Assembly (NCBI RefSeq): GCF_003790525.1
Contig: NZ_CP033635.1
Length of the DNA stretch: 64,000 bases
Strand: one strand, 5' to 3'
DNA from: Escherichia coli
GTDB lineage: Bacteria > Pseudomonadota > Gammaproteobacteria > Enterobacterales > Enterobacteriaceae
How positions within the stretch are numbered: the first letter of the stretch is position 1; each line of letters starts with the position of its first letter. Under the pieces are notes generated by a model. That model made no database searches, was not told the DNA's origin, and saw only the letters and a list, made by a program, of their open reading frames with translations. Made by a program: the position numbers and the translations under genes. Positions 3,662 through 59,865 of this stretch are shown in pieces.

Positions 3662-5407
3662 TCACTTTTTCGCCAGCTCCTGGTTTAATGTCCAGAGCTC
3701 CAGGCGTTCTTCGTTGCTTAAACCATGCGTGCGCTCACGAGCGATTAACTCTTCCTGGCGCAGTTCAAGCAGCGAATCAAACATATGGTTGAGTGAGTCG
3801 GTGAAGGTTTGCTCAGCAATATTCTTATCTGCTATATCGTCCCACATCGACAGTTTTTCAAGGGTGGCAGCATTATTTGTACCACGATAGTGCTCTAAAA
3901 GTTGCCCGGTGGTCAGACCTGGCTGGGAGAGACAAGTGTTGACCAGTTCTCTGAATAAGCCAAGTCCAGGGAGCTTATTTTCATCCAGATTCTCAAGCGG
4001 CGGGACCAACGTCGCTAATTCTGGATTTTGCACCAGCAACCCTATAAGTATACGCATGGTCGTGCGTTTTAGCTGCGGAACAGGGCGAGAAACGCCGCTC
4101 TCTGCCGCTTTTGGCATTAATCGTTCAAGCTGGCTGTCATCAAGTATGCCTAATTTGTTGCCTAATTCCTGACGAAGATATATTCGCAGCGTTTCGCCCG
4201 GCACTTGCGATATCAATGGCAGTGCCAGCGTACTCAAACGTGCGCGCCCGTCAGGGGTACTCAGATCAACTTGCGGCATCAGACTGTTAAACAGAAATGC
4301 GGAGAGTGGCATCGCCTGCTCCATCCGCGCTTCAAACGCTTCTTTACCTTCTTTTCGTACCAGCGTGTCAGGGTCTTCGCCATCAGGCAAAAACATAAAG
4401 CGTAGCTGACGACCGTCTGTCATGTAAGGCAGCGCCGTTTCCAGCGCTCGCCAGGCGGCATCGCGGCCTGCACGGTCGCCGTCATAACAGCAAATGACAT
4501 TGTTGGTCGCGCGGAACAACAGTTGTATGTGATCGGCAGTGGTTGACGTACCTAACGACGCAACGGCGTAATTAATGCCGTATTGCGCCAGCGCCACCAC
4601 GTCCATATAGCCTTCGACCACAAGCAGACGATTGGGTTCAGCGTTATCCTGCTGCGCTTCATAAAGACCGTAAAGCTGGCGGCCTTTATGGAAAATGTCC
4701 GTTTCCGGCGAGTTCAGGTATTTGGGGGTATCGTTGCCCAGCACGCGTCCGCCAAAACCAATCACCCGACCGCGTTTATCACGAATGGGGAACATCACCC
4801 GCTCGCGGAAACGGTCGTAACTGCGCCCCTGATCGTTAGTGACCAACATGCCCGCATCAATCAATGACTGGCGATTTTCTGGATTGCCGCCAAACCGCTT
4901 CAGGACGTTGTCCCAGCCAGGGGGGGCAAAACCAATCGCAAAGCGGGCGATAACCTCGTGGCTTAATCCGCGTTTTTCCAGATACTGGCGCGCAGACGTG
5001 GCAACAGGTTGCTGTAAAGATTGTTGGTAAAACGTATTCAGACCGTCCATCAACTGATAAAGCGTTTGTCGTTGATGGCGCTCGATCTGGCTGGGGCCGC
5101 TACCTGCTTCAAATGGCACTTCAAGATTGTGCATTGCTGCCAGCTCTTCGACCGTTTCGACGAACTCAAGCTTGTCGTAGTTCATCAGGAAGTCGATCGC
5201 GTTGCCGTGCGCGCCACATCCAAAGCAGTGGTAAAACTGTTTCTCACCGTTAACGGTGAATGATGGGGTTTTCTCGTTGTGGAATGGACAACACGCGTGG
5301 AAATTCTTGCCCTGCTTTTTCAGCTTCACACGGGCATCGATCAGATCGACGATGTCAGTGCGTGCCAGCAGATCATTAATGAATACGCGTGGGATTCGTC
5401 CAGCCAT
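3662..5407 (-). CDS. dnaG: DNA primase
   Basis: 581-aa ORF with the zinc-ribbon CCPFHNEKTPSF...CFGCGAHG and a TOPRIM domain; sits in the rpsU-dnaG-rpoD operon. Confidence 0.97.
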   Translation of the reverse strand: MAGRIPRVFINDLLARTDIVDLIDARVKLKKQGKNFHACCPFHNEKTPSFTVNGEKQFYHCFGCGAHGNAIDFLMNYDKLEFVETVEELAAMHNLEVPFEAGSGPSQIERHQRQTLYQLMDGLNTFYQQSLQQPVATSARQYLEKRGLSHEVIARFAIGFAPPGWDNVLKRFGGNPENRQSLIDAGMLVTNDQGRSYDRFRERVMFPIRDKRGRVIGFGGRVLGNDTPKYLNSPETDIFHKGRQLYGLYEAQQDNAEPNRLLVVEGYMDVVALAQYGINYAVASLGTSTTADHIQLLFRATNNVICCYDGDRAGRDAAWRALETALPYMTDGRQLRFMFLPDGEDPDTLVRKEGKEAFEARMEQAMPLSAFLFNSLMPQVDLSTPDGRARLSTLALPLISQVPGETLRIYLRQELGNKLGILDDSQLERLMPKAAESGVSRPVPQLKRTTMRILIGLLVQNPELATLVPPLENLDENKLPGLGLFRELVNTCLSQPGLTTGQLLEHYRGTNNAATLEKLSMWDDIADKNIAEQTFTDSLNHMFDSLLELRQEELIARERTHGLSNEERLELWTLNQELAKK

Positions 5408-40069: not shown

Positions 40070-42211
40070 TCAAAATTCCATTTTCACCGTGAATTGCACT
40101 TCACGAGGATCGCCAATCTGGTTGCCCAGATTATTTGTGGCGATGGAAGAGGTGTAATACGTTTTATCAAACAGGTTTTTGACGTTTAATTGCAGTGTGA
40201 CCGGATACTGCAATTTCATTTTGTATGCGGCGAAGGCATCGGCAACGAAATAGCCTGGCAGATAATAGTCAGCCCCATTGGTTGCCGAACGACGGCTTAC
40301 GCCATGTCCACCACCGCCAAACGTCAGTGTGTTATTGCCAGGCATGTTATGAATGTCATAAGTCAGGAATAGCGAACCGGTATGACGAGGAACATTCGGC
40401 AATGGTTTCCCTGCATAATCAGGATCCTCCAGAACCTTAGCATCGGTATAGCCGTAGCTGGCAATGATATTAATGTTTTCAGTTAATGCTCCCGCAAGGT
40501 CGACTTCTACCCCTCTTGAACGAACACGGCCTGCCGTTTTGGCAATGGTTTCATCACCAACACTTTCGGTATACAACACATTACGTTTATGGATATCAAA
40601 CAGCGCAATATCTGCGGTGATACCATCGAATAGCTCGAATTTTGCCCCGACTTCGTAAGCATTAGATGATTCCGGTGGAAGATCGCCAATGTAGCTGGCA
40701 ATTGACGACTGCGGCATAAATGTTTGCGAATAATTGGCAAATAAGGATACCGATGGCGTCAGTTTGTAGACTAACCCCAGTTTGGGAGTCCATTGTTCAT
40801 CGCGGCTGTCAGTATTGACATTAAAAGGACGGCCTTTACCCGCATACTGCGTGTAATACTGATAGCGGATCCCGGCGACGGCAATCCAGTTATCGGTCAG
40901 ATAGAGTGCGTCCTGTGCATACGCTGAGTAGCTCTCCTGTTTGATCGTCTGATCACTGTCCGACGCCGAAACCGTTGTACATTTGCTGGTATTACCATAA
41001 ACAGGGTTGTAGATATTGAAATCTTTAGCTTTTTTACAGCGAATCATATCTGTACGCAGAAGATCATAATATTCATATGACACCCCACCCAGAATCTCAT
41101 TATAGAATCCGGCAATATCAACATTCCCTTGCAGATCCGCACGAGTAGCATGCATACGCTGGGTAGATCCCTGAGTTGCATCAACACGCCGTGTCAGTGT
41201 TCCTGTCGTTGCATCATACGCGGTAACACGCGCCTGATTATCGCTGTATTTATCCTGGCTGTAGCTGTAATCAAAGCGCGCTGTCCACTGGCTATTGAGA
41301 TGATATTCTGCGTTGAGTTGCGCCAGATCGGACTTTCCATCTGTAATATTAAACGGTTCGTCAAAACGTATTTTTCGATCAACGTTTACGGGCTGTTTCG
41401 TCGTAAGGTCGAAAATCGTTCCACGATCGAACGGAGTTTTATAGTCCCGATGGGAATAGAGCATAGTTACTGTTGCATTATCACCAAACCAGGTGAGTGA
41501 CGGGGCAATAAATGTACTGCGCTCTTTACCGAAGTTTCGCCAGTAATCTTCATCCTGCACTTCCCCGGTAAGGCGATACGCCAGCTGAGTGCCTTCAATG
41601 GGACCTGTGATATCAAGTTGCCCAGTGCCGCCACCAAAACTGGAGGAGGTGGCTGAAACCGAACCATGGAATGTTTTTTCCGGGCGCTTGGTCACGACGT
41701 TAATCAGTCCACCAGGATCGAGAATGCCATACAGCGTGGAGGCCGGACCTTTTAGCACTTCCACACGTTCTGTGGCGGCGTTGAAACTGCGAGGAAGTAC
41801 AGTTCGCAGGCCGTTGGTCATGATGGAGCCATCCCGGTTAGCACCAAACCCACGACGTACAAAGGCGTCCTGAGTTCCGCCTAATGTATTGGTCTGTACC
41901 ACGTTACTGACGTTATAAAGCGCTTCATCCAGCGTCGTCGCATTCTGATTTTCCAGAACCTGATCGCTAACAGTATTGACCACCTGCGGGATATCCAGCA
42001 TCGGCATATCGGTTAATGTCGCCGTGGAAGTGCTCAGAGGTTGATAACCATCGGTTGCCTCAGTTGCGGTATTTGCATCTGCTGTAACAGTGATTGTTTC
42101 GCCATCTTTGGTCGTTACAGAGTCTGTTGCATGAATCATCGGTGCCGCAAAAAGCAGTGAAAAGAGCGCCCGACCTTTGAGTCCTGAGAATGAAGGTGTG
42201 AACATAGCCAT
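40070..42211 (-). CDS. TonB-dependent outer-membrane siderophore receptor (accessory)
   Basis: 713-aa ORF with a signal peptide, TonB box ETITVTA, plug and beta-barrel, and a C-terminal aromatic residue (MEF). Confidence 0.85.
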   Translation of the reverse strand: MAMFTPSFSGLKGRALFSLLFAAPMIHATDSVTTKDGETITVTADANTATEATDGYQPLSTSTATLTDMPMLDIPQVVNTVSDQVLENQNATTLDEALYNVSNVVQTNTLGGTQDAFVRRGFGANRDGSIMTNGLRTVLPRSFNAATERVEVLKGPASTLYGILDPGGLINVVTKRPEKTFHGSVSATSSSFGGGTGQLDITGPIEGTQLAYRLTGEVQDEDYWRNFGKERSTFIAPSLTWFGDNATVTMLYSHRDYKTPFDRGTIFDLTTKQPVNVDRKIRFDEPFNITDGKSDLAQLNAEYHLNSQWTARFDYSYSQDKYSDNQARVTAYDATTGTLTRRVDATQGSTQRMHATRADLQGNVDIAGFYNEILGGVSYEYYDLLRTDMIRCKKAKDFNIYNPVYGNTSKCTTVSASDSDQTIKQESYSAYAQDALYLTDNWIAVAGIRYQYYTQYAGKGRPFNVNTDSRDEQWTPKLGLVYKLTPSVSLFANYSQTFMPQSSIASYIGDLPPESSNAYEVGAKFELFDGITADIALFDIHKRNVLYTESVGDETIAKTAGRVRSRGVEVDLAGALTENINIIASYGYTDAKVLEDPDYAGKPLPNVPRHTGSLFLTYDIHNMPGNNTLTFGGGGHGVSRRSATNGADYYLPGYFVADAFAAYKMKLQYPVTLQLNVKNLFDKTYYTSSIATNNLGNQIGDPREVQFTVKMEF

Positions 42212-42311
42212 TTAGTCTGTTATCCCAAAAACTCGCGGATTGTCGCGAGTGAAAATTGTTTCTTATTGCTCACTAAGCACTATCCGTTTGTTATTTCGCC
42301 ATCGGATATGT

Positions 42312-42330
42312 AATTGAGAATCATTCAATC
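42312..42330. promoter_or_regulatory. Candidate Fur box in the divergent receptor/ABC promoter region
   Basis: aattGAGAATCATTCaatc partially matches the GATAATGATAATCATTATC consensus (about 12 of 19). Confidence 0.25.
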
Positions 42331-42584
42331 ACGCAGTAATGTAGTAGTAAATGAGAAATAACAAAAAATTGCTACATGTGTTTTTATGAAAAGTTTATAC
42401 AATTTGATTGCTTTTAATTTATTGATATTTAATGGTTTTGTTTTTATGTGCAAAAATATTTTACCTGTTATTTACCTTGTTTTTGTGTGGCTTTTAACTG
42501 CTTGACTACTACATTTTGTGGCGTCAAACTCTCAAAGGAGAATGAGTTTTATTTTTGTTTGTCTTTGATTAAGTTGGCGTACAC

Positions 42585-43394
42585 GTGGCACATAACGCAA
42601 AAGGGCAGGGGCTGATCCTCGACAATGTTTCTGCCGGGTATCACAAGAAAATCATTGTTGATGGTGTTTCTTTCTCCGTTCCCACAGAAAAAATGACCGT
42701 TCTGGTTGGGGCAAACGGCTGTGGAAAGTCGACGCTGCTCAGCACCATTGCTCGTATCTTGCAACCCATGGGCGGTTCGATATTGCTGGATGGTAAAGCG
42801 ATTCACGAGCAACCAACGAAAGCGTTATCCCGTAGACTTGGGATCTTGCCGCAGTCGCCATTATTGCCGGAGGGCTTAACCGTTTATGAACTGGTGTCGC
42901 GTGGGCGTTTTCCCTGGCAGAATTTCATTCGTCAATGGAGCGACGCCGATGAGCTGGCGGTAGAAGAGGCCCTGAAATTAACGGGTACGCAGGAGTTTGC
43001 ACATTTACCTGTTGAAAAACTCTCTGGTGGGCAGCGCCAGCGTTGCTGGATTGCGATGGTGTTGGCGCAAAAGACGCCTTATATCCTGCTGGATGAACCC
43101 ACAACCTGGCTTGATTTACGTTATCAGGTTGAAATTCTTGAGTTATTACATGATTTAACGCGTCATCACGGGCGTACAGTCGTCGTGGTGTTGCATGATC
43201 TGAATTTTGCCGTCAATTATGGCGATACGTTGATATTTTTACGCCAGGGGAAAGTGGTGCGTGTGTTGAATGAGGGGGAGCATTGCACGCCTGAGCTGGT
43301 AAAAGCGGTCTTTGACGTTGATGTTCACGCATCAATAAATCCTCTGACGGGAAAGCCGTTCTTCATGCCGTTTCGTGGTGTAGAAAAAGTATGA
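42585..43394 (+). CDS. ABC transporter ATP-binding protein (FecE/FepC-like)
   Basis: Walker A GANGCGKST, signature LSGGQRQR, Walker B ILLDEP; GTG start with a weak SD. Confidence 0.85.
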   Translation: MAHNAKGQGLILDNVSAGYHKKIIVDGVSFSVPTEKMTVLVGANGCGKSTLLSTIARILQPMGGSILLDGKAIHEQPTKALSRRLGILPQSPLLPEGLTVYELVSRGRFPWQNFIRQWSDADELAVEEALKLTGTQEFAHLPVEKLSGGQRQRCWIAMVLAQKTPYILLDEPTTWLDLRYQVEILELLHDLTRHHGRTVVVVLHDLNFAVNYGDTLIFLRQGKVVRVLNEGEHCTPELVKAVFDVDVHASINPLTGKPFFMPFRGVEKV

Positions 43395-44374
43395 TGCGCA
43401 CAGGGCTGGTTACTGTAATTTTCCTCGCCTTACTGCTGGTGGGATGCGTGGTATATCCAGGGATTGGTGCCCGATTTATTGCACCACAAACGGTGTTGCA
43501 GGCATTTCTTCATTTTGATCCGCAAAACTTCGATCACAACGTAATTGTAAGACTCCGTTTGCCGCGTTTAGCGGCAGCATTGCTTACCGGTGCTTCTCTT
43601 GGAGTTGCTGGTGCTTTGTTGCAGGCTGTCATTCGTAACCCATTGGGGGAGCCACATATTTTAGGCTTAAATGCCGGAGCCGCTCTTGCTGTCGTTGCTG
43701 CCAGTGCGCTTGGGCTGGCCTTTCCGGTTGGACGCCCACTGCTGGCATCTACGGGCGGCGCGTTATTGTTCCTGTTGATATTGCTGCTTTCCTCCGCAGG
43801 GCGTTCAGGGTTAACGCCAATGAAAGTTACTTTATGCGGCGTGGCGCTATCGGCGTTCGTGTCCTCAATAACGGCTGCAATCCTGATTCTTGACGAACAA
43901 ACACTGCTGGCGATGCGGACATGGCTAGCAGGTGATTTAGCGGGGCAGGATTGGGCGACGCTGGGTACGTCCGCCTGGTTTTCTCTGGGGGGATTTGTGT
44001 TAGCCCTTTACCTTGCACCCTCCCTTAACATGTTGGCACTGGGCGATCGCATGGCGCAGGGGCTGGGCGTCTCTGTATTCCGCACGCGAACATTCACCCT
44101 GCTTGCGATCGCGTTGCTCTGTGGCGCAGCCGTATCGATTGCTGGCCCCATTGGTTTTGTCGGCCTGCTAGTACCGCAGATTGTCCGGCGTCTGGTATCA
44201 GCGGATCTGCGCGTTCTGCTCCCTCTTTCAGCTTGTGTCGGCGCACTTTTGTTATTACTGGCAGATATTATTGCCCGTACGCTTTTCACACCCCATGAGT
44301 TAGCGACCGGTGTCATGACGGCGTTAGTTGGTGCGCCTGTTTTTGTCATTATGGCGACGAGGATGTTCAAATGA
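43391..44374 (+). CDS. ABC transporter permease, FecCD family
   Basis: 327-aa polytopic ORF; start overlaps the ATPase stop. Confidence 0.85.
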   Translation: MMRTGLVTVIFLALLLVGCVVYPGIGARFIAPQTVLQAFLHFDPQNFDHNVIVRLRLPRLAAALLTGASLGVAGALLQAVIRNPLGEPHILGLNAGAALAVVAASALGLAFPVGRPLLASTGGALLFLLILLLSSAGRSGLTPMKVTLCGVALSAFVSSITAAILILDEQTLLAMRTWLAGDLAGQDWATLGTSAWFSLGGFVLALYLAPSLNMLALGDRMAQGLGVSVFRTRTFTLLAIALLCGAAVSIAGPIGFVGLLVPQIVRRLVSADLRVLLPLSACVGALLLLLADIIARTLFTPHELATGVMTALVGAPVFVIMATRMFK

Positions 44375-45420
44375 GTCGGATAATGAACGTCGGGCTACGC
44401 CCACTACGTGTTGGTAAGTTTTCGACACTGGTACGCCCTAAAAATCTGCTGTTGCTTGGTGGGCTGTTCCTGCTTGCGGTTGGAATACTGATATTCGGTC
44501 TGATGCAGGGTTCTTTCTCTGTTCCGGCATCGGAAGTAGGACGAGCGTTGTTTGCTCCAGAAAACGTAAGCACAGACGCACGTTATATTGTGCAGGATAT
44601 TCGCTTGCCGAGAGTCATCATGGCATTGCTATGCGGGGCCATGTTAGGTATGGCAGGGGCCGCAATGCAATCCATTGCACGTAACGGCCTTGCCGATCCT
44701 GGTTTAATCGGCGTCAAAGAAGGATGTAGCGTGGCTGTGCTGTGGCTGATTTTCCAGTTTCCAATGCTGGGAATGTTCTGGCGTCCAGTGGCTGGTCTTG
44801 CTGGTGGCCTGTTGGTGGCTTTAATCGTGATTTTTTGTGCGCGCGATATTTCCCGCCCGCGATTTGTTCTGATTGGTATTGGTGTTTCCTGGTTTTTCGC
44901 CGCCGGTATCGGTGTATTTATGACCACTGCAGATGTTCGAGATGTACAAACTGCATTGATGTGGTTATCGGGAAGCCTGCATGCAGCTAACTGGATGTTA
45001 GTCGCTATTTCAGCCTGTTGGATGTTGCCAGCCGCTCTTTTATTGCTGTTCACCGCCAGGACGGCGGATATCGCTCTGCTTGGTCATCAGGTTGCAACCG
45101 GGTTAGGGGTGAATAGTTCTCGTCTGGCGTTGTTACGTGTCGCTGCACCCATAATCCTGACAGCCGTCTGCGTTTCGTGTGTTGGTAACATCGGTTTTGT
45201 CGGATTGATAGCACCCCATATATCACGTTTTATTCTACGTGGCGGGCAGACGACATTACTGCTGGGGAGCGCGGTATCGGGGGCGTTGTTAGTTATTCTG
45301 GCGGATAGCATTGGTCGTTTGGCTTTTTTGCCTTTGCAACTGCCTGCCGGAATCATTATCTCACTGATTGGTGGACCATTTTTTTTGCTACTGCTCTGGC
45401 AGCGCAGGAACAGTTTTTAA
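44371..45420 (+). CDS. ABC transporter permease, FecCD family
   Basis: 349-aa polytopic ORF; overlaps the upstream permease by 4 nt. Confidence 0.85.
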   Translation: MSRIMNVGLRPLRVGKFSTLVRPKNLLLLGGLFLLAVGILIFGLMQGSFSVPASEVGRALFAPENVSTDARYIVQDIRLPRVIMALLCGAMLGMAGAAMQSIARNGLADPGLIGVKEGCSVAVLWLIFQFPMLGMFWRPVAGLAGGLLVALIVIFCARDISRPRFVLIGIGVSWFFAAGIGVFMTTADVRDVQTALMWLSGSLHAANWMLVAISACWMLPAALLLLFTARTADIALLGHQVATGLGVNSSRLALLRVAAPIILTAVCVSCVGNIGFVGLIAPHISRFILRGGQTTLLLGSAVSGALLVILADSIGRLAFLPLQLPAGIIISLIGGPFFLLLLWQRRNSF

Positions 45421-45430
45421 CGGGAGTTAT

Positions 45431-46378
45431 ATGCGTTTATTTTTTTCTCTGCTGATACTGTTGTCATTTTTTTCCCGTGCAACAGAACCTGTTCAGGTAT
45501 TTACTGATGATTTAGGGCGCAAAGTCACTGTTCCTGCTCATCCAAAGAGAATTGTCTCTTTACACGATCTTGATATCACTATTCCTCTGATTGAGCTCGG
45601 TGTACCTCCTGTCGCCAGCCACGGGCGAACTCGGCCTGACGGTAGCCATTTCATTCGATCTGGCGCGTTATTGACAGGTGTCGACTTTGATAATTCATCG
45701 ATCGCCTTTATTGGTACCGCTGATATTGATATTGAAGCGATTGTGGCGGCAAAGCCTGACCTGATCATCACAGAACCGACCCGTAATACGCCCATTGAAC
45801 AACTTGAAAAAATTGCGCCCACGGTGAGCATTGATCATCTCAAAGGGGGCGCGCCAGAAATCTATCGCAAGCTGGCAGAACTTACAGGAACGCAGTCGCA
45901 GCTGGCGATACTTGAACGCCGCTATCAGGCACAAATCAATGCGCTGAAGGCGACGCTGGACAGCCAAAAAATAACGGTATCGGTGATTCAGGCAAACCAG
46001 GGAAAAATTAATGTGATGCATAGCTATCATTCGCTGGGGCGGGTATTACGCGATGCTGGTTTTCGTTTTCCGCCGCTGATTGAGAGCATTCCTGAAGGTG
46101 GGCGAATGGATGTGAGCGCGGAGCGTTTACCTGAACTGGATGCCGATTTTGTTTTTGCAACCTGGCGCGGTGACACCGGTGGTAAACCTCAGGATGAGCT
46201 GGCAGCAATGGAAAAAGTCATGCCGGGATGGTGTCAGTTTCTGACTGCCTGTCGTTCCGGGCGTTATGTGCTGATTTCTCGTGAAGAGGCGATTTCTAAC
46301 TCCTTTGCATCTCTGGGGCTGATGGCTGCGCAGATACAATCACAAATTGCAGGGCGACCTCTACCGGAGGATAAATGA
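45431..46378 (+). CDS. Periplasmic substrate-binding protein (FecB/FepB-like, cluster A)
   Basis: Product starting MRLFFSLLILLSFFSRA (signal peptide) at the ATG at 45431, with a GGGAG SD. Confidence 0.8.
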   Translation: MRLFFSLLILLSFFSRATEPVQVFTDDLGRKVTVPAHPKRIVSLHDLDITIPLIELGVPPVASHGRTRPDGSHFIRSGALLTGVDFDNSSIAFIGTADIDIEAIVAAKPDLIITEPTRNTPIEQLEKIAPTVSIDHLKGGAPEIYRKLAELTGTQSQLAILERRYQAQINALKATLDSQKITVSVIQANQGKINVMHSYHSLGRVLRDAGFRFPPLIESIPEGGRMDVSAERLPELDADFVFATWRGDTGGKPQDELAAMEKVMPGWCQFLTACRSGRYVLISREEAISNSFASLGLMAAQIQSQIAGRPLPEDK

Positions 46379-47262
46379 TCCAGAAAGATAAAGCGCGGGT
46401 TGATATTTTTGGTGAGCGTTTTCGCACTCGCGCGAGTCAGTTAACGCCTGGGTTAAGAGTTGTCGCCAGCTACATTAATGAGCATCGTGAAGTGGTACTC
46501 GAGCAAACGGCGATGGAAATTGCGGCCACGTTGAACACTTCCGATGCCACAGTTATCAGGGCTATACAGGCCCTGGGGTTTGCCGGGCTGCGTGATCTGA
46601 AACGCACTCTGGAACAGTGGCTTGGTCCAGCCCTTAGTTCCAGCGAAAAGATGTCTACGACGGTGAGTAACTTGACGAGCGATGTTAACACCGCAATCGA
46701 CTTTGTTCTTGAAGGGCATTTGTATACCTGTAATGTCCTGTCAGAGCCTGAAAACCGCCACGCGCTTGCGCAAGCTGTAGCGTTGTTGGTGCAGGCACGG
46801 CAAGTCGCTATTTTTGGCATTGGCGCTTCGGGTATCCTGGCGGACTATACCGCACGACTATTCAACCGCATAGGTTTGCCTGCCACGGCACTAAACCGTA
46901 CGGGTATTGGCCTTGCCGAGCAACTGATCGCGCTTCAACGTGGCGATGTTCTGATCATGATGGCGCAAAAATCTGCGCACCGGGAAGGGCTGACAACGCT
47001 TCGTGAGGCGAGGCGGCTGGGGATCCCTGTTATTTTGCTGACAAACGCGCTGGATTCACGTTTTAGCAAAGACGCCAGTATCGTGATTCATGTTCCGCGC
47101 GGGGATGAAAAAGGGAAAACGCCGCTACATGGTACGGTATTGTTGTGTCTGGAAATGATTGTCTGGTCGGTAGCTTCCGCAGTGCCGCAGCGTGCGGTTA
47201 AAACCATTAAGCGAATTAACGATTTCCATCGAGGACTGAAAACGGGAAGAAAGAATGGCTAA
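46375..47262 (+). CDS. RpiR/MurR-family transcriptional regulator (HTH plus SIS domain)
   Basis: 295-aa ORF with an N-terminal HTH (TAMEIAATLNTSDATVIRAIQALGFAGLRDLK) and a SIS phosphosugar-binding fold (IFGIGASGILA); overlaps the binding-protein stop. Confidence 0.8.
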   Translation: MIQKDKARVDIFGERFRTRASQLTPGLRVVASYINEHREVVLEQTAMEIAATLNTSDATVIRAIQALGFAGLRDLKRTLEQWLGPALSSSEKMSTTVSNLTSDVNTAIDFVLEGHLYTCNVLSEPENRHALAQAVALLVQARQVAIFGIGASGILADYTARLFNRIGLPATALNRTGIGLAEQLIALQRGDVLIMMAQKSAHREGLTTLREARRLGIPVILLTNALDSRFSKDASIVIHVPRGDEKGKTPLHGTVLLCLEMIVWSVASAVPQRAVKTIKRINDFHRGLKTGRKNG

Positions 47263-58067: not shown

Positions 58068-59414
58068 TCAGGTCGAAAATAATCCTGGCAGCATCAGACT
58101 AAGCTGCGGGAAATAACAAATAATTGCCATTACTACAAACAATGCCAGAAACATCGGCAGTAATGGTTTTATTGCCCTGTCGATACTGACCTTACCAATG
58201 CTGCAACCAACAAACAGAATGGTGCCAACGGGTGGTGTACAAAGGCCAATGGTCAAGTTGAACACCATAATAATACCGAAGTGGATGGGATCTATTCCCA
58301 GATGCTGAGCGATCGGCAGGAAAATAGGCGTAAATATCAGGATCGCCGGTGTGATATCCATAAAGGTACCGACGATCAACAGAATGATATTGATGATAAA
58401 CAGAATAACCCATTTGTTATCCGAAACACTGGTAATCAGTTCGTTGATCAACTCAGGAACATCAGCATTCGTCATGGCCCATGACATCCCCATCGAGCAG
58501 CCTACCAGTAACAGAACAATTGAACTGGTTACTACCGAATCTAACAGAATATCATTGAGCTTCTTAAAAGTGATTTCCCGGTAAATCATCGCCAGGGCTA
58601 AACTATAAATTACCGCAATTGCCGATGCTTCCGTGGGCGTGAATACCCCTGCGATAATACCGCCAATAATGATAAAAATAAGCATCAGGCTGGGAATTGA
58701 TTCGCGGAATACCTGCAAAAATTGATGAAAATTGATACGTTCGGCCACCGGATAATGGTTACGTCGCGCATAAAGTGCCGCCACAAACATTAAAGCAGCA
58801 GCGGTGAGAATGCCTGGCAAGTATCCGGCTAAGAACAACGCAGCAACAGAAGTCCCGCCACTGGCGAGGGAATAAACAATCAACACATTGCTCGGTGGGA
58901 TCATCAGGCCAATGGGGGCAGAGGCAATATTAACCGCTGCTGAAAACGCCGGATCATAGCCCTCTTTTTCTTGCAGTGGTGACATAATTCCACCTACCGC
59001 GGCGGCTGACGCAACGGCTGAACCTGAAATCGCACCAAACAGCGTATTCGCGAGGATATTACAATGAGCCAGTGAGCCAGGAAGACGCCCAACTAATGCT
59101 TGCGCTAGGTTAACCAGTCGTCTGGCTATACCACCGGTATTCATAATGTTTCCGGCTAACACGAAGAAGGGAATGGCTAATAGCGTAAAGCCATCCAGCC
59201 CCACAGTCATCTTTTGCGAAATCACAGAAATGGCGGCATCGGGTGGTAAGGCAGTAATAATAGATAACAGCGAAGAAAGACCAATCGCAAAAGTAATTGG
59301 CACACCGATTGCCAGCATGACGGCAAAACTGCCAAATAAAATTAAGACGGGGTAGATATATTCAAAGTCCATATTTCCCTCGTTAATGAAAATTCCGTTT
59401 ACGATAGTTGTCAA
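58068..59414 (-). CDS. TRAP transporter large permease (DctM family)
   Basis: 448-aa polytopic ORF; the true start may be the internal MDFEYIYP. Confidence 0.85.
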   Translation of the reverse strand: MTTIVNGIFINEGNMDFEYIYPVLILFGSFAVMLAIGVPITFAIGLSSLLSIITALPPDAAISVISQKMTVGLDGFTLLAIPFFVLAGNIMNTGGIARRLVNLAQALVGRLPGSLAHCNILANTLFGAISGSAVASAAAVGGIMSPLQEKEGYDPAFSAAVNIASAPIGLMIPPSNVLIVYSLASGGTSVAALFLAGYLPGILTAAALMFVAALYARRNHYPVAERINFHQFLQVFRESIPSLMLIFIIIGGIIAGVFTPTEASAIAVIYSLALAMIYREITFKKLNDILLDSVVTSSIVLLLVGCSMGMSWAMTNADVPELINELITSVSDNKWVILFIINIILLIVGTFMDITPAILIFTPIFLPIAQHLGIDPIHFGIIMVFNLTIGLCTPPVGTILFVGCSIGKVSIDRAIKPLLPMFLALFVVMAIICYFPQLSLMLPGLFST

Positions 59415-59865
59415 TAATATTCATTACTGAATACCAGACCAGAATAAGTCCACTGACAGGCATAACCCAATATACTTTATCCATTGGCCATTTTAATACT
59501 GGAGAGATTTGTCCAACATGTTGTGCTTTTTCAACAACAATATTCCCGCCATAGATCATGAAAATAACCGCAAAGACCGTAATAATAATTTGGATAAAAC
59601 TGTCAAGCGTCAGAACAGATGCAGCCGGAAGTTTTTGAGCCAACAAATCAATGGCCAGATGTTTTTTTAACCCCGCAGTATATACACCGCCAAGTAAAAT
59701 CATCCACATAAATAAAATCTGGGTGAACTCATCAAGCACAGTGCTGGGAGCGTTAAAAATAAAACGTGCAATAACTTGCTAGGTTACGCAGAACACCATA
59801 ATGGCGAGAATAATGCAGCAACATCCGGCAAGGATCTTATTAAGAATATGAGTGAGTGTTCGCAT
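59383..59865 (-). pseudogene. TRAP transporter small permease (DctQ family) interrupted by an in-frame TAG at codon 29
   Basis: ATG at 59865 with a GGAAG SD, giving MRTLTHILNKILAGCCCIILAIMVFCVT, then TAG (59781-59779), then the frame continues QVIARFIFNAPSTVLDEFTQILFMWMILLGG... to 59383. Confidence 0.6.

Follow-up and report, generated by a model that had tools for sequence, protein, structure and literature searches.

Described Bidirectional Iron-Uptake Promoters

The fit system of Escherichia coli is said to have been first described by Ouyang and Isaacson in 2006, in Infect Immun 74:6949. The fit promoter fragment directs transcription both ways and is repressed independently by iron, by Fur, and by FitR, which binds to it (PMC2593036). 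A fur mutation raises fitA expression 23-fold, a fitR mutation 2.2-fold, and the two together 52-fold (PMC2593036). A fitB reporter (lacZ) fusion gives 168 units with iron and 525 without, and the fitA fusion was reported to behave similarly (PMC2593036). In gel shifts, FitR retards the whole 359-bp fit fragment with specific competition (PMC2593036). According to that 2008 paper, the precise sites of Fur and FitR were yet to be identified (Open Microbiol J 2:94, PMC2593036), and a literature search for later mapping of these sites in the fit region found nothing relevant. A homologous system in K. pneumoniae is induced by iron limitation (PMC5907654).

Similar arrangements can be found in the enterobactin cluster, in the regions fepA-fes, fepD-entS, and fepB-entC. 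Like the fit promoter, these are AT-rich and bidirectional, set a receptor or transport gene against a partner operon, and carry 19-bp Fur boxes that overlap the promoter cores. They also supplied sites for training the Fur matrix used here.

Structured leaders are known from several outer-membrane protein mRNAs, such as the two-hairpin leader of ompA and the cirA and shiA leaders, which are controlled by RyhB and Hfq. Leaders of this type are long: one hairpin stands close to the 5' end, a single-stranded linker follows, and a further hairpin lies by a U-rich tract, with a weak ribosome-binding site.

Among regulators, the nearest described counterpart of FitR is RccR of Pseudomonas (structure 8JU9). 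It binds TGTAGT/ACTACA half-sites with variable spacers (PMC5489143), and two of its arginines, R53 and R56, are essential for DNA binding. RccR is autoregulated, and its repression is modulated by a sugar-acid phosphate ligand (PMC5489143, PMC11014249).

The fit Intergenic Region

The window analyzed here is a stretch of 64,000 nucleotides from E. coli (contig NZ_CP033635.1). [quoted passage not shown] They are limited by the ATG of the receptor gene at 42211 (minus strand) and the GTG of the ATPase gene at 42585.

40070-42211, minus strand: fitA, a TonB-dependent siderophore receptor of 713 aa (NCBIfam TIGR01783, 375 bits; Pfam Plug plus beta-barrel; RefSeq agrees)
42380-42500, no strand: AT-rich centre separating the two promoter modules; it varies more among E. 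coli alleles than any other part and is not alignable between genera
42585-43394, plus strand: fitB, an ABC-transporter ATPase with a GTG start (NCBIfam FecE-like, 282 bits, aligned from residue 10; RefSeq has the same start)
46375-47262, plus strand: fitR, an RpiR/MurR-family repressor acting on the fitA-fitB region (Pfam HTH_6 plus SIS; published primer match)

The first-pass annotation of this DNA had recognized a divergent control region of an uptake island. The region is in fact the already published bidirectional fit promoter/operator. Exact matches to the two published "fit promoter" primers lie at 42233-42254 and 42568-42591; the published fitR primer aligns at 46375 with a single mismatch, in the start codon. 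Identity at the sequence level is joined by identity of content: open reading frames and family matches give all six genes, with fitA divergent from the fitB ATPase gene, followed by the permeases fitC and fitD, the binding protein fitE, and fitR with its HTH and SIS domains. The island has the order fitA, then fitBCDE-fitR on the opposite strand, and lies between parE and ygiN. The same annotation was right to describe the 373 bp as AT-rich, at 31.1% G+C against 50.7% in the whole window.

The present region thus shares with the published one (PMC2593036) its DNA, primers, gene order, two-way promoter, repression by Fur and FitR, and FitR gel shift. It differs in its allele, which is SMS-3-5-like here and i484 there. 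Many strains, E. coli SMS-3-5 among them, have a 100% identical sequence. The exact FitA sequence is absent from the protein collection searched, and the clusters containing FitR all bear generic "MurR/RpiR family" labels.

The region was found in 1,870 of 5,426 complete E. coli genomes. The island, present in about one third of them, also occurs in many species of Klebsiella, Enterobacter, Citrobacter, Kluyvera, and Kosakonia, and a role as a marker of extra-intestinal and adherent-invasive E. coli has been suggested for it. The basic picture, a Fur-repressed siderophore-uptake locus, is unchanged by this analysis; it is ordinary biology with useful new detail. Beyond the published work, what is added are predictions of sites, start sites, and leader assignments. 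With a base-level map of two Fur boxes, two candidate FitR motifs over the -35 hexamers, predicted start sites, and a structured leader, specific experiments can be derived from the published results on the whole fragment.

The fit region differs from the enterobactin-cluster regions in three ways. It has one Fur box per promoter, at or after the start site; it has an additional, pathway-specific RpiR-type repressor predicted over both -35 elements; and it belongs to an accessory island that about one E. coli genome in three possesses.

Two Predicted Mirrored Promoters

When about 100,000 genomes were scanned for the core element, 110 hits were obtained, 106 of them flanked by a fitA-like receptor gene and/or by fitB or fitR. 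The remainder are three chance hits in unrelated phyla and one locus too short to judge. A base-level model was built from 106 related loci in more than 100 related species, with conservation calculated over 104 distinct sequences.

What emerges is a pair of mirrored promoter modules. In each, a -35 hexamer lies inside an invariant ACTACTACA and is followed by 17 bp, a weak -10 hexamer, and a Fur box. The spacing of the promoter elements is the same in all loci compared. TG, TTGAAT, and TTTACT are invariant in the 104 sequences at positions that the search pattern did not fix.

42351-42346, minus strand: -35 hexamer of fitA, TTTACT
42323-42331, minus strand: extended -10 element of fitA, TGaTTGAAT (TG 42331-42330, hexamer 42328-42323), with TG and hexamer invariant at 2.0 bits each in unforced positions
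42314-42316, minus strand: predicted fitA transcription start, placed from the -10 hexamer and giving a leader of ~104 nt
42502-42507, plus strand: -35 hexamer of fitB, TTGACT
42525-42530, plus strand: predicted -10 hexamer of fitB, CAAACT, after a 17-nt spacer, where a cross-genus alignment has CA(A/T)(A/G)AT at the same place
~42536-42538, plus strand: predicted fitB start

Both -10 hexamers are weak, which is why a generic sigma-70 promoter scan of 42100-42700 gave no site at its thresholds, and the promoters were therefore derived from conservation. They would be two back-to-back sigma-70 promoters firing outward; the fitA start is predicted near 42315 (minus strand) and the fitB start near 42537 (plus strand), a separation of about 221 bp. 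We infer the exact start sites, and likewise the assignment of Fur and FitR to particular blocks and the role of the leader hairpin discussed below.

The model as a whole, with dual sigma-70 promoters, Fur boxes, FitR motifs on the -35 elements, and a structured fitA leader, is in our judgment probably correct. Across the related loci, one promoter cassette drives receptors that are only ~37% identical.

Candidate Fur Boxes

Across Enterobacterales, two candidate Fur boxes keep constant positions with respect to the promoter elements.

42309-42328, no strand: candidate Fur box 1, TGTAATTGAGAATCATTCAA, whose 19-bp register 42310-42328 is GTAATTGAGAATCATTCAA (12/19 consensus, 9.3 bits, invariant in 104 sequences)
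42538-42556, no strand: Fur box 2, GAGAATGAGTTTTATTTTT (17.1 bits, the best Fur match in the 64-kb window)

The first-pass annotation had reported a partial Fur box at 42312-42330. A candidate is indeed present there, but the register is 2 nt off: 42310-42328 matches the consensus GATAATGATAATCATTATC at 12 of 19 positions and the register first given at fewer than 10, and of the two boxes this is the weaker. The scan with a Fur weight matrix that had been proposed as a check was carried out. With a small matrix trained in this analysis on 11 sites from nine E. coli K-12 Fur promoters, box 1 scores 9.3 bits, in the top 0.04% of window positions, yet below every training site (11.3-21.5 bits). 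Box 2, at 17.1 bits, falls inside the training range, at the level of known sites. It had been overlooked in that annotation, as had the mirrored ACTACTACA motifs, the second leader hairpin, and FitR with its likely operator.

Counting consensus matches does not raise box 1 above chance, as 156 window positions on the two strands score at least 12/19. Its significance comes from conservation instead: all 20 bp of the block 42309-42328 are invariant in the 104 distinct sequences, unforced positions included. Of 64 fitB-class loci, 59 have box 2 as their top-scoring Fur match (11-20 bits) in the stretch from the core element to fitB, and in these loci it stands ~28-30 nt after ACTACA.

Box 1 overlaps the predicted -10 element and start of fitA, and box 2 spans +1 to +20 of the predicted fitB transcript. 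When iron is plentiful, Fur-Fe2+ on both boxes would block open-complex formation or promoter escape, and this would be the dominant control.

It is rather unlikely, in our estimate, that the conservation of block 42309-42328 reflects nothing but the fitA promoter core or the site of some other factor, with Fur acting directly at box 2 alone or indirectly on fitA. The low score of the block, below all training sites, would fit such a reading, as would the fitA -10 hexamer that it contains and its left end, TGTAAT, which resembles an RpiR-type half-site. Against this, the fusion in the fitA direction reportedly shows the same kind of iron response as the fitB fusion, and fitA mRNA is 23-fold up in the fur mutant (PMC2593036). 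The core of box 1, GAGAATCATTC, is close to the ryhB, fhuA, and fecI training sites of K-12 (AATAATCATTCTC, AACCATTCTC), a likeness to known Fur sites that likewise argues for Fur. Ordinary promoters do not keep 20 consecutive bases across bacterial families, and in Rhizobium the block is replaced where the FitR motif persists. Direct action of Fur at both boxes is the reading followed here.

Other strong matches to the Fur matrix in the window, at 58665 and 59410, lie inside AT-rich TRAP-transporter genes and are probably chance.

FitR and Its Candidate Operators

FitR is an RpiR-type regulator with the Pfam domains HTH_6 (PF01418) and SIS (PF01380). Its best solved relatives are 8K3B and PaRccR, 8JU9 (E ~3e-15). 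In the DNA region, two motifs are candidate operators for it, and a third is an inverted partner.

42340-42351, no strand: candidate FitR operator 1, TGTAGTAGTAAA, reading TTTACTACTACA on the minus strand and holding the fitA -35 hexamer TTTACT (42351-42346); invariant, with the half-site of RccR
42371-42377, no strand: GCTACAT, an inverted partner of TGTAG at 32 bp centre to centre (~1 bit per position and fixed distance in 104 sequences)
42502-42514, plus strand: candidate FitR operator 2, TTGACTACTACAT, holding the fitB -35 hexamer TTGACT (42502-42507); an inverted repeat with 42338-42351, conserved in fitB-class loci and Rhizobium

Half-sites of the RpiR/RccR type are found as TGTAGTAGT at 42340, GCTACA at 42371, and ACTACTACA at 42505; the last includes the TGTAGT/ACTACA half-site of RccR. 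The operator 1 motif is invariant and always stands exactly 13 nt from the Fur-box core. The GCTACAT partner is absent in the subgroup formed by Klebsiella, Raoultella, and Kluyvera. Operator 2 forms its inverted repeat with 42338-42351 over 13 of 14 nt, and an equally good repeat arises in 4% of shuffles.

The motif occurs together with the regulator across taxa, as seen in the 106 of 110 hits with a fit context and in Rhizobium. Loci selected only by similarity to the FitR protein have the core element in four of four cases. In Pantoea-type loci, ACTACA is also found upstream of fitR, mostly without a Fur box there. On a Rhizobium plasmid with a FitR that is 47% identical and the same gene order, AATGTAGTAGTCAA and TTGACTACTACA are mirrored in the same way, and a search of this fit-type locus for GAGAAT-type Fur boxes found none.

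FitR and RccR share HTH_6 plus SIS. The TGTAGT/ACTACA half-sites of RccR tolerate variable spacers (8JU9; PMC5489143, PMC11014249), and the candidate FitR motifs contain half-sites of this type. FitR is nonetheless a distant relative (E ~3e-15); of the two DNA-binding arginines, R53 is conserved and the position of R56 holds a glutamine. FitR governs iron uptake, whereas RccR governs carbon metabolism, and the candidate motif of FitR is an extended TGTAGTAGT with partners 7 to ~40 bp away.

From this comparison of sequences, motifs of the ACTACTACA type are candidates for the FitR operator. FitR on TGTAGT/ACTACA-type motifs over both -35 elements would produce a few-fold, iron-independent autorepression, presumably relieved by a ligand of its SIS domain. 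The RpiR-type half-site TGTAGT/ACTACA appears to be common to regulators of carbon metabolism and iron uptake, which is of modest general interest.

Alternatively, ACTACTACA may be just an extended preference of the -35 element and spacer, with FitR bound elsewhere, for instance in the AT-rich centre. The motif does overlap both -35 hexamers, and the placement of FitR on it is a prediction. We consider this explanation improbable, as the AT-rich centre is the least conserved part of the region, while ACTACTACA follows FitR across gamma- and alpha-proteobacteria and precedes fitR itself where fitR is the divergent gene. It also carries the half-site proven for the related regulator RccR. ACTACTACA is accordingly kept as the candidate operator.

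The fitA Leader and Its Hairpins

From its predicted start, the fitA transcript would have a leader of ~104 nt with two conserved stem-loops; a U-run and a weak ribosome-binding site come after the second of them, H2.

42281-42308, minus strand: leader hairpin H1, UAUCCG, a 16-nt loop, and CGGAUA (RNAalifold, fitted alignment)
42265-42273, minus strand: single-stranded box between H1 and H2, GUGAGCAAU in the mRNA of this strain (columns conserved in alignments A2 and A3)
42231-42250, minus strand: leader hairpin H2, in the mRNA ACUCGCG-ACAAUC-CGCGAGU and then UUUU (sequence; covariation)
42223-42226, minus strand: GGGA, 11 nt before the AUG and the sole Shine-Dalgarno-like element of fitA, within a conserved GGGA(A/U)AACAGA tract (leader comparison)

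H2 is the hairpin to which the first-pass annotation had drawn attention as a perfect 6-bp stem in the receptor 5' UTR. CTCGCG-GATTGT-CGCGAG lies exactly at 42232-42249, and an additional A-T pair extends the stem to 7 bp (42231-42250). The placement also holds: H2 occupies about +66 to +85 of the predicted leader, and the 3' end of its stem is 19 nt upstream of the fitA AUG.

Perfect 6-bp hairpins are expected by chance, with a mean of 1.05 in shuffles of the region. A G+C-rich one (at least 5/6) appeared in 0 of 300 shuffles. The local fold at H2 is more stable than expected (z = -3.0, p = 0.007); the fold energy of the whole fitA leader is not exceptional (z = -1.29). Across leaders, the mean fold z is -2.25 for H2 and -2.0 for H1.

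Compensatory changes point to a conserved structure. Within E. coli, the alleles of O157:H7 and LR14 have both G>A (42235) and C>U (42246) in H2. Among 59 leaders, the hairpin at this position has 46 different 5' arms. H2 is too variable to align by sequence, so that RNAalifold on a plain MAFFT alignment recovered only four pairs, all of H1, and a covariance model was used for H2 instead. In the seed alignment (A3), 10 pairs have double-sided changes, compared with 4.0 ± 1.4 in shuffles, none of 500 being as high. In the model-fitted alignment (A4), which leans towards the modelled structure, the share of paired cells is 89.6%, whereas shuffles reach 70.6% and slid controls 27-47%. Double-sided changes there number 150 against 43, all nine H2 pairs have them, and for H1 the share of paired cells is 95.6%. 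By RNAalifold, H1 has four pairs with 14, 5, 9, and 5 double-sided changes, and in most other genera it has an additional inner GCC/GGC stem. The fitA leader thus shows compensatory changes beyond controls, as a conserved cis-regulatory RNA does.

This covariation speaks against the idea that CTCGCG-N6-CGCGAG is a DNA operator for a dimeric regulator, be it FitR or another protein. The sequence is a perfect inverted repeat, G+C-rich within an AT-rich region, and it lies partly inside the fragment shifted by FitR. However, 46 distinct arms that differ in almost every genus while keeping their pairing are the signature of an RNA structure and not of a recognition sequence. The hairpin is absent from Pantoea-type and Rhizobium loci that keep FitR, and the published fragment begins at 42233, one base into the left arm of the palindrome. 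A DNA operator here is hardly credible; the hairpin is not a protein-binding palindrome. Most likely, H2 acts at the RNA level, on leader stability, on translation, or in the docking of Hfq and small RNAs.

Within RNA-level roles, H2 and its U-run could be an attenuator, an intrinsic terminator that stops most fitA transcripts after ~85-90 nt unless a signal intervenes, possibly releasing a small leader RNA. On the mRNA strand, a 7-bp G+C-rich stem is directly followed by UUUU(U)GGG. At least four U occur in the 8 nt after the stem in 61% of the 59 leaders, and Kluyvera and Citrobacter have five to seven. Nevertheless, a terminator scan did not call H2, leaders of Klebsiella, Raoultella, and Erwinia keep the hairpin but have no U-run, and no alternative anti-terminator pairing is seen in the fitA leader. 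The fixed distance from H2 to the AUG (17-25 nt) points rather to a role linked to translation or stability. Attenuation is therefore fairly unlikely, and a role of H2 in the stability or translation of the leader is the reading carried forward.

A larger proposal is that the whole leader, with H1, the GGGCAAUGA/GUGAGCAAU box, H2 and its U-run, and a weak ribosome-binding site, is a previously undescribed cis-regulatory RNA of Enterobacteriaceae that adds a post-transcriptional iron check. We rate it as quite unlikely. The box at 42265-42273 reads GGGCAAUGA in most other genera and is complementary to the core of RyhB (RyhB sequence from K-12). If the proposal were true, Fur-repressed RyhB, with Hfq at the U-tract of H2, would pair with the box and raise the translation or stability of fitA; alternatively, RyhB and Hfq would counteract premature termination at H2. 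Either would make a feed-forward loop like those described for cirA and shiA. In a test of the leader as a RyhB target, complementarity of 8-9 bp was found, and duplex energies were not beyond those of shuffled leaders (mean z -0.55). The link of the box to RyhB is speculative, and the resemblance to the ompA, cirA, and shiA leaders is architectural only.

An Rfam search of 41900-42900 at a permissive E-value found no family at its gathering score. Its only hit, to a plant microRNA family, was rejected as chance (27.6 bits against a cut-off of 65).

The Start of fitB

An 8-codon leader mini-ORF, MSFIFVCL, was considered as coupled to fitB (AAGGAG at 42535-42540, ATG at 42542) and rejected. A G of its ribosome-binding sequence is lost (AAAGAG) in O157:H7, LR14, and Klebsiella, LR14 has in addition lost the stop codon of the mini-ORF, and the sequence concerned is that of Fur box 2.

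The first-pass annotation had noted that the ATPase gene has no good Shine-Dalgarno sequence and had taken its start to be uncertain. The former is correct, as none is found upstream of the GTG at 42585, but the doubt about the start does not persist. An in-frame TAA at 42570-42572 makes this GTG the first possible start of fitB. The GTG does not vary among five E. coli alleles, and in Klebsiella-type homologues an ATG stands in its place in the alignment; comparative sequence evidence of this kind supports it as the likely start. The Klebsiella-type fitB homologues do carry AGGAG.

Identity of the promoter region

The region 42212-42584 lies in the fit system of Ouyang and Isaacson. Its identity is settled because their own primers match the window: the "fit promoter" primers match exactly at 42233-42254 and 42568-42591, and, with a single mismatch, the fitR cloning primer also matches at the start codon of that gene. 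The island (40070-47262) is inserted between parE and ygiN.

40070-42211, minus strand: fitA, TonB-dependent siderophore receptor
From the GTG at 42585, strand opposite fitA: fitB, ABC ATPase, followed by genes for two FecCD-type permeases and a substrate-binding protein
46375-47262: fitR, RpiR/MurR regulator with HTH_6 and SIS domains

The longest open reading frames of fitD and fitE begin upstream of their RefSeq starts, by 12 nt (44371, RefSeq 44383) and 63 nt (45368, RefSeq 45431) respectively.

The stretch 42100-42700 is 100% identical to E. coli SMS-3-5 and many other strains. Among 5,426 complete E. coli genomes, 1,870 contain this stretch, and about 34% the island. Alleles of the intergenic region group by identity as at least 99%, 95-99% or 90-95%; that of O157:H7 belongs to the divergent class. 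Variation among the alleles is greatest in the centre (about 42380-42500).

The region is an already published, experimentally characterised bidirectional promoter, repressed by Fur and FitR. Placed before lacZ in either orientation, the fit fragment gives expression that is repressed by iron (168 versus 525 units for the fitB fusion, with similar results reported for fitA), and purified FitR shifts it in gels with specific competition; according to the authors, the exact Fur and FitR sites are still to be identified (PMC2593036). In K. pneumoniae, RNA-seq shows that iron limitation induces the fit homologue (PMC5907654). A literature search, which did not extend to the 2006 fit paper, found no later mapping of either protein's sites. 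Because the published fragment starts at 42233, its reverse primer (42233-42254) sitting on the hairpin discussed below, the fusions and gel shifts included both predicted Fur boxes and both ACTACTACA motifs; the hairpin lacked its first base, and neither the U-run nor the ribosome-binding site was included. What is new here consists of predictions: precise Fur boxes, a likely FitR operator in common with RccR, the geometry of the promoters, and a conserved two-hairpin leader.

Fur boxes

The first-pass annotation had described an AT-rich region of 373 bp with a partial Fur box at 42312-42330. The region has 31% G+C, against 51% in the window. The Fur-box match is real, but its best register is 2 nt away, at 42310-42328, where 12 of 19 positions agree, a count that is unremarkable within the window. 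The weight-matrix scan proposed in that annotation was made with a symmetrised 19-bp matrix, trained on the best sites at nine promoters that Fur controls in K-12 (fepA-fes, fepD-entS, fepB-entC, ryhB, fhuA, cirA, fiu, fecI and fecA). The site at 42310-42328 scores 9.3 bits, within the top 0.04% of positions yet under every training site. A stronger box nearby, which had gone unreported, is the top site of the whole 64-kb window at 17.1 bits (42538-42556, GAGAATGAGTTTTATTTTT). The original observation is confirmed and its cautious interpretation supported.

The next-best matches, 58665-58683 (15.2 bits) and 59410-59428 (14.7 bits), lie within AT-rich genes for TRAP-transporter membrane subunits and are probably due to chance.

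A conserved promoter cassette

In a sensitive DNA search of plasmids, about 55 bp of the region (42297-42361) is 85-93% identical in Klebsiella and Pantoea replicons. Each match examined precedes a TonB-dependent receptor gene, if one is annotated, and has a fitB- or fitR-like gene on its other side. In four loci selected solely for encoding a FitR orthologue (P. agglomerans, P. ananatis, P. dispersa and Rahnella), AATTGA(G/T)AATCATTC-N13-TGTAGTAGTAAA is present in all four with identical spacing. A pattern scan of about 100,000 genomes, one per species, gave 110 matches; in 106 of these, a fitA-like receptor and/or fitB or fitR adjoins the match. Chance accounts for three, in Flavobacterium, Bacteroides and Planctomycetes metagenome-assembled genomes (MAGs), against about two expected; the last, in Erwinia, is on a locus too short to judge.

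Two types of locus can be distinguished. In the fit type, FitA is 67-99% identical and fitBCDER adjoins it; this type occurs in Escherichia, Enterobacter, Klebsiella, Raoultella, Kluyvera, Citrobacter, Kosakonia, Lelliottia, Yokenella, Phytobacter and some Erwinia. In the Pantoea type (comparison loci L021, L031, L035, L043, L055, L066, L072, L087 and others), the receptor is just 35-38% identical to FitA; a binding-protein gene usually follows it, and in most loci the directly divergent gene is fitR. The same 40-bp cassette, consisting of a Fur box, 13 nt and TGTAGTAGTAAA, precedes the receptor in both types. Judged by sequence, the control element of the Pantoea-type loci is better conserved than the gene that it would control.

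Pantoea-type loci also occur on plasmids labelled 'Acinetobacter venetianus' (L004, CP060162) and 'Pseudomonas sp.' (L033, CP093281), the former with the replicon type of Pantoea megaplasmids (rep_cluster_1232). Probably the organism labels are wrong or the plasmids were recently acquired.

Among 104 distinct sequences, several bases are invariant although the pattern did not fix them: TGTAA before the box, CAA after it, CA at +16/+17, and TAAA after TGTAGTAG. Conservation suggests the following fitA elements, and comparison of 69 loci on the fitB side gives (C/A)TTGACTACTACA(T/G), 11-12 nt, CA(A/T)(A/G)AT, about 6 nt, GAGAATGAG(A/T)TTTATTTTT.

42351-42346, fitA strand: predicted -35, TTTACT
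42331-42323, fitA strand: predicted extended -10, TGnTTGAAT, after a 17-nt spacer
Near 42314-42316, fitA strand: predicted fitA start
42502-42507, fitB side: predicted -35, TTGACT
42525-42530, fitB side: predicted -10, CAAACT
Near 42537, fitB side: predicted fitB start

With these positions, the Fur box on the fitA side (42309-42328) would extend from the -10 element to about +7, and that on the fitB side would lie at +1 to +20. The two promoter modules are mirror images. A repeat finder returns the inverted repeats 42338-42351/42502-42515, equalled or bettered in 4% of shuffles, and 42312-42326/42540-42554.

Which protein probably binds where

Fur boxes are found at the receptor and fitB promoters. 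Upstream of fitR, Pantoea-type loci mostly lack them but retain an ACTACA motif at a distance of 45-95 nt. A plasmid of the alpha-proteobacterium Rhizobium rhododendri (L129, 1700-1940) has the full fit gene order, a FitR 47% identical, and AATGTAGTAGTCAA and TTGACTACTACA at the same mirrored positions; enterobacterial GAGAAT-type Fur boxes are absent from this locus. Rhizobiales control iron through regulators other than Fur, which this absence fits.

The closest solved relatives of FitR are 8K3B and P. aeruginosa RccR (8JU9, E about 3e-15). RccR binds the palindrome TGTAGT/ACTACA with a spacer of varying length, as established by ChIP-seq, SPR, footprinting and gel shifts (PMC5489143, PMC11014249). 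The fit motif holds the exact RccR half-site, with inverted partners at varying distances (for example GCTACA at 42371-42376). Of the two arginines essential in RccR, one is kept in FitR, whereas the other is glutamine. Because of the distribution of the blocks across loci, the Rhizobium case, the kinship with RccR and the shared half-site, we infer that ACTACTACA is the predicted site of FitR and the GAGAAT blocks are those of Fur.

The fitA leader

The hairpin noted at 42232-42249 in the predicted 5' UTR of the receptor is found exactly there, at about +66 to +85 of the predicted 104-nt fitA leader. Its 3' end is 19 nt upstream of the AUG, and a U-run and GGGAUAACAGA follow. Perfect 6-bp hairpins are frequent in shuffles of the region (mean 1.05); a G+C-rich one appears in 0 of 300. 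The local fold has a z of -3.0.

Several lines of comparative evidence support a conserved RNA structure. In the O157:H7 and LR14 alleles, G>A at 42235 accompanies C>T at 42246, so that a G-C pair becomes A-U; the 100-nt stretch holds just three non-coding differences, including these two. Of 59 distinct leaders of the fit type, roughly 48 have a largest hairpin whose end lies 17-25 nt upstream of the AUG, and a 38-nt hairpin window has a mean z of -2.25, with p <= 0.05 in 58% of leaders. A second hairpin near the 5' end (42281-42308) likewise covaries. The hand-checked seed alignment has double-sided changes at 10 pairs, against 4.0 ± 1.4 in shuffles. Its covariance model found 51 leaders, and none in the Pantoea-type and Rhizobium loci. 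In the fitted alignment 89.6% of cells are paired (70.6% in shuffles, 27-47% in slid controls), a figure somewhat inflated since fitting favours structure.

The stem sequences are so diverse, with 46 different 5' arms among the 59 leaders, that a protein-binding palindrome is ruled out. In E. coli and Kluyvera the U-run gives the hairpin a terminator-like form, but Klebsiella and Erwinia leaders have no U-run and a terminator scan does not call the hairpin. The conserved structure is accompanied by a single-stranded GGGCAAUGA box (GUGAGCAAU in the window), likewise conserved, which could form 8-9 bp with the CAUUGCU(C/U) repeats of RyhB; predicted RyhB duplexes are no better with the leaders than with shuffled ones.

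In the K. pneumoniae plasmid pCMC432M_P3 (L002, 3822-3903), an upstream ATG at 3903 would give MTQPHVACRTLPGRALFSLLFLASPGLMA|ADN and a leader of about 110 nt, as in E. coli. The annotated start of this fitA homologue probably truncates the signal peptide.

The fitB translation start

The first-pass annotation considered the fitB start uncertain for want of a good Shine-Dalgarno sequence. That sequence is genuinely absent before GTG 42585, but the start itself is supported by homology and RefSeq, which uses the same codon. Because of an in-frame stop at 42570-42572, it is the first possible start. It is invariant across five E. coli alleles, and in Klebsiella-type genes the aligned codon is an ATG with an AGGAG.

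An AAGGAG followed by an 8-codon reading frame (MSFIFVCL) occupies 42535-42568, 16 nt before the GTG. As a mini-ORF with its own Shine-Dalgarno it was rejected, neither part being conserved and the stretch overlapping the fitB-side Fur box.

Among the sequences inspected, those of Escherichia, Enterobacter-MAG and Lelliottia have the fitB GTG after GTTGGCGT(A/T)CAC and no Shine-Dalgarno sequence (42568-42587 in the window); in one MAG, GTTGGCAT takes the place of this motif. Klebsiella, Kosakonia, Citrobacter and Erwinia have an ATG with AGGAG and a longer leader.
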